A DNA stretch of 45,144 nucleotides, from the IMG/VR virus record IMGVR_UViG_2851976983_000003; one strand, given 5' to 3'. The stretch's first letter is position 1. Each line of letters opens with the position of its first letter. Below are positions 30,991-31,300 of this stretch, one piece after another. The position numbers and the translations under genes were made by a program. Under the pieces are notes generated by a model that worked only from the letters and a program-made list of their open reading frames with translations, was not told the DNA's origin and made no database searches. The DNA comes from a virus. Taxonomy: Duplodnaviria > Heunggongvirae > Uroviricota > Caudoviricetes.

Positions 30991-31065
30991 TGGAGCGGGT
31001 AGCGGGAATCGAACCCGCATCATCAGCTTGGAAGGCTGAGGTAATAGCCATTATACGATACCCGC
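30991..31065 (-). tRNA. tRNA-Gly (anticodon UCC)
   Basis: 75-nt cloverleaf, acceptor gcgggta/tacccgc, anticodon arm tcagc-cttccaa-gctga, T-loop ttcgatt, encoded CCA. Confidence 0.8.
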
Positions 31066-31068
31066 ATA

Positions 31069-31144
31069 TGGTGCCGACTACCGGAATCGAACTGGTGACC
31101 TACTGATTACAAGTCAGTTGCTCTGCCTGCTGAGCTAAGTCGGC
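31069..31144 (-). tRNA. tRNA-Thr (anticodon UGU)
   Basis: 76-nt cloverleaf, acceptor gccgact/agtcggc, anticodon arm actga-cttgtaa-tcagt, T-loop ttcgatt, CCA. Confidence 0.8.
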
Positions 31145-31146
31145 AC

Positions 31147-31223
31147 TGGACCGCCACCGGGGACTCGAACCTCGCACACTCAACTTAAAGGGTTGACGCT
31201 CTTTCCTGATGAACTGGTGACAG
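31147..31223 (-). tRNA. tRNA-like gene, atypical (anticodon loop CCUUUAA, nominal anticodon UUU; possibly degenerate)
   Basis: 77-nt foldable cloverleaf with encoded CCA, but two G-U pairs in the acceptor stem, C at position 8, C at position 33 and an A-C mismatch in the T stem. Confidence 0.45.
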
Positions 31224-31224
31224 T

Positions 31225-31300
31225 TGGTGGCCCTTGCTGGATTTGAACCAGCGACCTGGCGATTATGAGTCGCTCGCTCTCACCACTGAGCTAAAGGGCC
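31225..31300 (-). tRNA. tRNA-Ile2/Met-type (anticodon CAU; ileZ/ileX-like)
   Basis: 76-nt cloverleaf, acceptor ggccctt/aagggcc, anticodon loop ctcataa, T-loop ttcaaat, CCA. Confidence 0.8.

Follow-up and report, generated by a model that had tools for sequence, protein, structure and literature searches.

A degenerate tRNA-Arg-derived gene in the packed tRNA array of an Escherichia coli lambdoid prophage, probably a pseudo-tRNA

Shiga toxin (Stx) phages of the 933W type (for example Stx2a_WGPS8, AP012540) carry the tRNA genes ileZ-argN-argO on the late strand, downstream of Q and upstream of the late/lysis or stx genes, and the same "moron" slot in Stx phages holds ileZ-argN-argO-stx2. Within that cluster, an intact tRNA-Arg(UCG) gene comes second and a tRNA-Arg(UCU) gene third. 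For 933W this description follows database annotations; a literature search on ileZ/argN retrieved nothing relevant. Here we describe a four-tRNA array in the IMG/VR virus record IMGVR_UViG_2851976983_000003. The whole stretch analyzed, 45,144 nucleotides (nt) and hereafter called the window, is the reverse complement of positions 1131005-1176148 of E. coli strain 503025 (NZ_CP025892.1, a 100% identical RefSeq record) and is a lambdoid prophage integrated beside potAB. Located on the late-gene strand, with Q on one side and the holin/endolysin genes on the other, the array consists of tRNA-Ile2(CAU), a degenerate gene with the nominal anticodon UUU (the odd gene), tRNA-Thr(UGU), and tRNA-Gly(UCC). 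With a probability of about 0.68, the window copy of the odd gene is a pseudo-tRNA that is shielded from deletion by the tight packing of the array.

The window array shares tight packing and encoded CCA ends with the Stx-phage cluster. Its first gene is identical to ileZ, and its second is an argN homologue (77% identity within the gene and approximately 85% in BLAST across the region); however, the second gene is degenerate, with the loop CCUUUAA and with U35 instead of the C35 of a tRNA-Arg, and the genes after it are Thr(UGU) and Gly(UCC) of host origin, not argO. An earlier reading, made from the sequence only, had regarded the arrangement as unlike typical lambdoid tRNA clusters. The analysis does not support this, given the classic Q-to-lysis slot, the ileZ-identical first gene, the argN position of the second gene, and the presence of odd-gene homologues in 797 of 5,426 complete E. 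coli genomes and in more than 120 IMG/VR contigs; the window array is a widespread form of a known type of lambdoid tRNA cluster, with no unusual arrangement. Closer still are arrays of Shigella flexneri and E. coli prophages (for example, those labeled L208, L206, L161, and L188 here) with the order Ile(CAU)-Arg(UCU)-Thr(UGU)-Gly(UCC). They have the same spacing and the same Ile, Thr, and Gly genes, and their second gene, which is 80-88% identical to the odd gene, is an intact tRNA-Arg with U33, C35, a Watson-Crick T stem, and compensated acceptor pairs (53-56 Rfam bits), whereas the window copy differs by U33C, C35U, U63C, and four further one-sided changes and scores 26.5 bits. The closest described copies are the prophage "tRNA-Lys" genes called by ARAGORN and the Prokaryotic Genome Annotation Pipeline (PGAP) in many E. 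coli genomes and phages, among them ETEC1731, PhiR47_1, and the PPompW prophages. These belong to the same family, with the C33/UUU loop, the A51xC63 mismatch, U73, and 94.8% identity, but they retain C2, C4, U8, and C11, reach 40-44 bits, and are picked up by the detectors, unlike the window copy.

The sequence-only reading had described four tRNA genes with spacers of 1-3 nt that all encode CCA, and this was confirmed (spacers of 1, 2, and 3 nt; CCA in four of four genes). Its assignments of Ile2/Met(CAU), Thr(UGU), and Gly(UCC) were upheld by both ARAGORN and Rfam, and the features that it listed for the odd gene (UUU, C33, acceptor G-U pairs, and a T-stem mismatch) were all present in the sequence. 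Its designation of the odd gene as the third member holds along the plus strand only; in transcription order the gene is second, and its place is called slot 2 below. The Ile, Thr, and Gly genes were called by ARAGORN and by the Rfam model RF00005 at its gathering score of 29 bits, and they were the only ones annotated by PGAP in the identical RefSeq record, while an 80-nt gap (31145-31224) was skipped by ARAGORN and by the gathering-level Rfam search. A permissive Rfam search (101 nt) matched the tRNA model over its full length at 31223-31150, with 26.5 bits and E=4.5e-4. The odd gene therefore lies under all three detectors, namely ARAGORN (in the window and in a controlled context), the Rfam gathering score, and PGAP. 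Scoring as a normal tRNA of another identity, which had been named as an outcome that would speak against the sequence-only reading, was not seen: PGAP left the gene unannotated, and the cleaner alleles of the family were called tRNA-Lys, which is the same nominal identity.

A protein-coding reading was rejected, with no open reading frame (ORF) of at least 60 amino acids overlapping 30991-31300 on either strand. Chance resemblance was excluded by the full-length model alignment and by the 88% identity to an intact tRNA-Arg(UCU) of the same slot; as judged from these alignments, the tRNA shape of the odd gene is due to descent and not to chance. Rfam also returned "Plastid-ycf2 5UTR" matches (26-37 bits against a cut-off of 65.7) antisense to every tRNA gene in L002, L003, L125, and other arrays; these arise artificially, because the model itself has tRNA-like content, and mark no real feature.

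From 5' to 3', the odd gene reads CUGUCAC-CA-GUUC-AUCAGGAAA-GAGC-G-UCAAC-CCUUUAA-GUUGA-GUGUG-CGAGG-UUCGAGU-CCCCG-GUGGCGG-U-CCA. It can be folded into a cloverleaf with four helices in which 20 of 21 pairs are standard, three of them G.U. The acceptor stem begins with C1-G72 and contains U2.G71 and U4.G69; the D stem contains U11.G24; the invariant U8 is replaced by C8; the anticodon loop CCUUUAA has C33 in place of the invariant U33; and the T stem is interrupted by A51xC63. The T loop UUCGAGU with G53-C61 is normal, and A14, G18G19, A20, A21, and the encoded 3' CCA are retained, with U73 as the discriminator. At -15.0 kcal/mol, this cloverleaf is 7 kcal/mol less stable than the minimum free energy fold. 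By the gathering score, gene-finder detection, and the invariant U8 and U33, the odd gene fails as a canonical elongator tRNA. Another anticodon register, such as UUA for an ochre suppressor, was rejected by inspection, since a one-base shift of the loop breaks the stem pairing (C-G, then A.A).

The identity elements fit neither candidate amino acid. The UUU triplet is the main lysine determinant, together with the discriminator A73, and arginine identity depends on A20 and C35 (PMC9976931). The odd gene has A20 without C35 and UUU without A73, and it is unrelated to lysT at the level expected of a tRNA-Lys. We considered a missense or recoding tRNA that is charged with arginine and reads AAA/AAG. 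The retained A20, the main determinant for the E. coli arginyl-tRNA synthetase, and the body of Arg lineage agree with such a tRNA; however, C35, the other major determinant, is lost, U35 directs lysylation, and proteome-wide Lys-to-Arg miscoding would be costly, yet the allele is found in 15% of E. coli genomes. We regard this explanation as very improbable.

To place the odd gene among known tRNAs, it was compared with host and phage genes. The host comparison, which the sequence-only reading had proposed, gave 58.2% identity to K-12 lysT and thereby ruled out a lysT homologue or a captured host Lys gene, while the Thr and Gly genes proved near-identical to thrU and glyT. Identity was 76.6% to argN of Stx phages, 80.5% to Arg(UCU) of L208, 88.3% to Arg(UCU) of L161, and 94.8% to the Lys-like consensus. 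In BLAST searches of phages and complete E. coli genomes, relatives with approximately 95% identity carry an annotated tRNA-Lys in the slot, and Stx-phage clusters align argN, a tRNA-Arg, to the odd gene at approximately 85%. The "tRNA-Lys" genes of ETEC1731 and phage PhiR47_1 have the same CCUUUAA loop and T-stem mismatch as the window copy, which differs from ETEC1731 only at positions 2, 4, 8, and 11 (C2/C4/U8/C11 in ETEC1731) and from PhiR47_1 only at 4, 8, and 11 (C4/U8/C11 in PhiR47_1) and at one variable-loop base.

IMG/VR was then scanned with a pattern fixed at the 3' end of Ile and at the 5' start of Thr on either side of the slot, which was itself left unconstrained. About 120 arrays were recovered; 114 had the CCUUUAA loop, and in a few, slot 2 held an intact tRNA-Arg(UCU) whose loop is CUUCUAA or UUUCUAA, whose T stem is fully Watson-Crick (A51-U63), and whose acceptor stem has a compensated pair (U4-A69 in L161). 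In a scan of one genome per bacterial species, the lineage was found only in E. coli and Shigella, where several Ile-Arg(UCU)-Thr-Gly arrays occur alongside Ile-"Lys"-Thr-Gly arrays in the same chromosome. The E2348/69 and O157 PPompW prophages have the Lys-like allele between ileZ and an argO-type Arg(UCU), in place of argN. All outgroups (argN and the UCU alleles) have U33 and C35, and therefore the Lys-like state is derived, via U33C and C35U, which turned the loop CUUCUAA into CCUUUAA; U63C produced the A.C mismatch of the T stem, and the window copy has the additional changes C2U, C4U, U8C, and C11U relative to the Lys-like allele. Judging from these comparisons, the odd gene descends from the tRNA-Arg(UCU) gene of the cluster (the argN slot). 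A26G also distinguishes the Lys-like allele from the Arg(UCU) alleles. The anticodon arm UCAAC-CUUCUAA-GUUGA was also seen in chromosomal tRNA-Arg(UCU) genes of distant bacteria (L207, L213-L215, and L218; unrelated metagenome-assembled genomes in a GTDB scan) and, on this comparison, is a standard Arg(UCU) arm with no phage peculiarity.

The alleles of slot 2 form a series of decreasing quality. Rfam scores were 56.4 bits for Arg(UCU) of L208, 53.6 for argN, 53.5 for Arg(UCU) of L161, 44.4 for the Lys-like consensus, 40.4 for PhiR47_1, and 26.5 for the window copy; the neighbouring tRNA genes score 65-74 bits. Cloverleaf energies followed with -26.2, -25.5, and -25.1 kcal/mol for L208, argN, and L161, and with -22.3 for the Lys-like consensus, -20.1 for PhiR47_1, -17.2 for the C8 type, and -15.0 kcal/mol for the window copy. 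Among 15 distinct Arg-type alleles, five pairs had compensatory double changes and 99% of the tabulated cells were paired, and none of 500 shuffles matched the observed percentage paired, the number of cells changed on both sides, or the covariation score. The 21 distinct Lys-like alleles had no double change; they had only one-sided C-to-U changes (giving G.U) or mismatches and could not be told apart statistically from shuffles. Damaged Lys-like copies had a 1-nt deletion in the D stem, a 7-nt deletion, a destroyed T loop (L141), and mismatches in every stem. The U8C lineage made up 26 of 109 copies (24%), and the window allele is that lineage plus C2U. In a controlled context, ARAGORN rejected only 4 of 21 Lys-like alleles, including that of the window.

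These data suggest the following course of decay. Through U33C and C35U, the anticodon loop lost the conserved U33 and, with C35, an arginine determinant, so that UUU is now the nominal anticodon, and U63C unpaired the T stem at 51-63. In the window lineage, the four further one-sided changes weakened the acceptor and D stems and removed U8. Because of the changes in the anticodon loop and T stem and these four additional ones, the window copy is most likely non-decoding, and we infer its loss of function from its sequence. Of all alleles, it is the one least expected to work, and many copies of the Lys-like family, that of the window included, are probably dead. The pseudo-tRNA option of the sequence-only reading is thus the best-supported one for this copy.

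The persistence of a dead gene at full length would follow from the packing, because with spacers of 1-2 nt almost any deletion that removes the odd gene clips either the Ile CCA end or the Thr 5' end. The deletions tolerated would be internal only, and these are the ones observed, so that the retention of slot 2 has a simple neutral explanation in the tight spacing. The residual acceptor/T-arm shape may still permit the RNase P cut at the 5' end of the odd gene. A related explanation is that slot 2 holds a non-decoding, tRNA-shaped processing element, an RNase P "punctuation" that frees the Ile 3' end and the Thr 5' end from a polycistronic precursor. It is consistent with the spacers of merely 1-2 nt, with the conservation of the acceptor 3' strand, T arm, and CCA (variation is mostly in the 5' acceptor strand and D arm), and with the retention of 73-80 nt in every sampled Ile...Thr array. 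However, a precise deletion would put Ile next to Thr, equally processable by RNase P, with no positive need for the element evident; deletion shielding explains the retention equally well; and copies with a destroyed T loop exist (L141). We consider such an element unlikely, slightly more so than the functional tRNA-Lys discussed next.

Several observations weigh against a pseudo-tRNA. The Lys-like clade is young, with a mean identity of 97%, and the absence of compensation is therefore weak evidence with little power. The Lys-like allele is present in 797 complete E. coli genomes, often annotated as tRNA-Lys, compared to 16 genomes with the Arg(UCU) allele. Private variants were not significantly denser in slot 2 than in the linked Ile, Thr, and Gly genes (17 in 77 nt versus 34 in 187 nt, p=0.30), nor were stem-breaking variants in excess over these genes, which share the genealogy (p=0.46); relaxed constraint is therefore not demonstrated from polymorphism. 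Slot 2 was never shorter than 73 nt (73-80 nt retained) in any IMG/VR array having both Ile and Thr, and the T loop, G18G19, A14, A21, and CCA are intact in the odd gene. The A.C mismatch of the T stem was discounted as a sign of a pseudogene, as host thrU also has one, and C33 was discounted as proof of non-function, since C33 is tolerated in the natural yeast tRNA-Leu(GAG) and alone need not impair a tRNA (PMC13492127).

Several of these points agree with a functional, alloacceptor-shifted tRNA, in which the Arg(UCU) body became a Lys(UUU) decoder charged by lysyl-tRNA synthetase that escapes the anticodon nucleases of E. coli directed at tRNA-Lys (PARIS AriB and PrrC). Such a gene would supply this tRNA together with Thr(UGU), which is likewise a prime target of AriB and P2 Old. 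PARIS AriB primarily targets tRNA-Thr(UGU) and tRNA-Lys(UUU), and its cleavage is abolished by U39A alone (PMC12409363); P2 Old prefers tRNA-ThrU, phage tRNA-Lys and tRNA-Thr rescue from AriB and P2 Old, and the tRNA-Thr(UGU) of phage 21 protects (PMC12445682). By inspection of the sequence only, the odd gene combines the host-target anticodon with an altered cleavage site, its anticodon stem reading U36-A-A-G-U-U (U36AAGUU, against host U36AAUCA), compared to the AriB site U36-A-A-U-C/A41 common to lysT and thrU. The main lysine determinant UUU is present, C33 has its yeast precedent, the allele is far more frequent than Arg(UCU), no deletion of slot 2 was seen in IMG/VR, the Thr gene has independently shifted to UUU in some arrays of the family, and a Lys gene is not accounted for by codon supply.

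However, the odd gene has U73 instead of A73 and C33 together with the A51xC63 mismatch, it has gained no compensatory changes, and within the series the window allele ranks lowest. Damaged sub-alleles are frequent (the C8 lineage, and the D-stem deletion of E2348/69, seen again in IMG/VR arrays), and this frequency speaks against strong purifying selection. The window Thr gene retains the host-type AriB site, and the Thr-to-UUU variant is rare (6 of 5,426 genomes). Single-step intermediates (U33 with UUU or C33 with UCU) were not found in IMG/VR, where every match was an unrelated sequence. A functional tRNA-Lys is thus an unlikely explanation of the window copy; the specialised or decoy tRNA of the sequence-only reading keeps a low probability, and in the cleaner alleles a nuclease-evading tRNA-Lys may still be at work. 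It is similarly doubtful, as judged from sequence comparison, that an anticodon shift from Arg(UCU) to Lys(UUU) in a lambdoid prophage gave rise to the Lys-like allele and that the allele then spread to approximately 15% of E. coli genomes as an AriB/PrrC-resistant tRNA-Lys or decoy. If it did, Lys-like and Thr(UGU) genes in one array would make the cluster an anti-defence module and not a codon-supply module.

The three neighbours of the pseudo-tRNA candidate are well preserved. The Ile gene is identical to ileZ of Stx phages and in all four aligned arrays, and the same sequence is present in 108 of 112 related arrays. The Thr gene equals host thrU except for U16C and U20C in the D loop and keeps the host anticodon arm, including the AriB site U36AAUC/A41, and the Gly gene equals host glyT except for one compensated pair (C6-G67 to U6-A67). 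In L043 and L147 (IMG/VR, same isolate), the sequence directly after Thr is the thrU-tyrU spacer of the host (TCAAGTCC) and continues for 35 nt into tyrU before it breaks off. This tyrU footprint in related arrays, showing an apparent capture, indicates that the phage Thr gene came from the host thrU-tyrU-glyT operon, and the phage Gly gene was probably captured from the same operon. The changes U16C and U20C are at dihydrouridine positions, and most related arrays have the host D loop; an AlphaFold model places a second AriB active site opposite U16-U17 of tRNA-Lys (PMC12409363).

The Thr gene itself has changed its anticodon in some arrays. It is shifted to UUU by G35U, always with A26G, in L125 (3480-3555) and also in L126, L136, L138, L158, L145, and L191. 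The shifted gene keeps A73, which completes its set of E. coli Lys identity elements; it is annotated as tRNA-Lys and reaches 74 bits, and its six complete genomes are H153-H158 in our set. Complementarity between the slot-2 type and the Thr-slot type, with always one UUU gene per array, was not found among the arrays. In phage SerU-LTIIb (KU052038; L204, 1122-1197), an array without Ile and slot 2 has a Thr body with the anticodon UCU and the loop CUUCUAA, annotated as tRNA-Arg. Its sequence marks a second case in which the captured thrU gene underwent an alloacceptor shift.

The positions of the array and its surroundings are listed in Table 1. By analogy with ileZ-argN-argO of Stx phages, the array would be transcribed with the late operon, and the precursor would be cut into single tRNAs by RNase P and 3' trimming. 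In a consensus promoter scan, sigma-70-like sites were no more numerous than in shuffles, and no separate promoter is claimed. Compared to K-12 reference codon usage, the prophage has raised use of ACA, GGA, AGA/AGG, and, in early genes, AUA; AAA is not raised. Ile2(CAU), Thr(UGU), and Gly(UCC) read AUA, ACA, and GGA, which are used more by the prophage than by the host. A role in supplying tRNAs for rare codons therefore suits the three intact genes and the ancestral Arg gene but not a Lys gene. The kinase/phosphatase pair between Q and the methyltransferase gene is very rich in rare codons (AUA 24, AGA 16, and AGG 14 per thousand) and is reminiscent of the Stk kinase of phage 933W.

Table 1. 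Features of the tRNA array and its surroundings in the window
Feature	Position	Strand	Basis
tRNA-Ile2(CAU), ileZ type, first gene of array, 76 nt including CCA	31225-31300	-	ARAGORN (Ile2/Met), Rfam 72.5 bits, PGAP tRNA-Ile
1-nt spacer (A), Ile CCA end/odd gene	31224	-	Sequence
Odd gene, 77 nt, Arg(UCU)-derived probable pseudo-tRNA, nominal anticodon UUU	31147-31223	-	Rfam 26.5 bits
2-nt spacer (GU on RNA strand), odd gene/Thr	31145-31146	-	Sequence
tRNA-Thr(UGU), 76 nt including CCA	31069-31144	-	ARAGORN, Rfam 69.8 bits
3-nt spacer (UAU), Thr/Gly	31066-31068	-	Sequence
tRNA-Gly(UCC), 75 nt including CCA	30991-31065	-	ARAGORN, Rfam 65.6 bits
Holin/lysis genes	30130-30522 and downstream	late-gene strand	PGAP of identical record
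DNA methyltransferase, directly upstream of array	31350-32399	-	ORF list, PGAP
Ser/Thr protein kinase and PP2C phosphatase pair, between Q and methyltransferase	32967-34471	-	
Terminator-like hairpin just after Q	34569-34548		
Antitermination protein Q	34616-35305	-	PGAP of identical record

Other elements were noted elsewhere in the window. The early region of the prophage contains IS1203 (IS3 family) at 37754-38967, with an ALIL frameshift pseudoknot at 38035-38151, and beside it the hokD/sok toxin-antitoxin locus (hokD 39150-39305, sok 39300-39474). A match to the small RNA IS009 was found at the start of the window (41-244), inside potA.

Hundreds of E. coli records annotate the odd-gene family as tRNA-Lys, and counts of prophage "tRNA-Lys" need caution. 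In this array family, anticodon shifts from Arg UCG/UCU to UUU and from Thr UGU to UUU or UCU make up a compact natural series, located in a phage region now linked to the evasion of tRNA-cleaving defences (PARIS and P2 Old). If the cleaner alleles are functional, they would be the first temperate-phage case of a remoulded, nuclease-insensitive tRNA-Lys; if not, the family illustrates a pseudo-tRNA preserved by tight packing.

Two further systems are comparable. Phage T5's tRNA-Lys(UUU), which neutralises PARIS AriB, is likewise a phage-borne UUU tRNA with an anticodon stem unlike that of the host at the AriB site (PMC12409363); however, it is canonical and demonstrably functional, whereas the window gene is Arg-derived and has C33, U73, and C8. 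In alloacceptor shifts, or tRNA remolding (PMC3923123, PMC4783518), the anticodon likewise specifies an amino acid other than that of the closest relatives, and the shift is recognised by synteny. The documented cases are functional tRNAs of eukaryotic nuclear and mitochondrial genomes, whereas in the window gene the shift is accompanied by damage, and this copy at least is probably dead.

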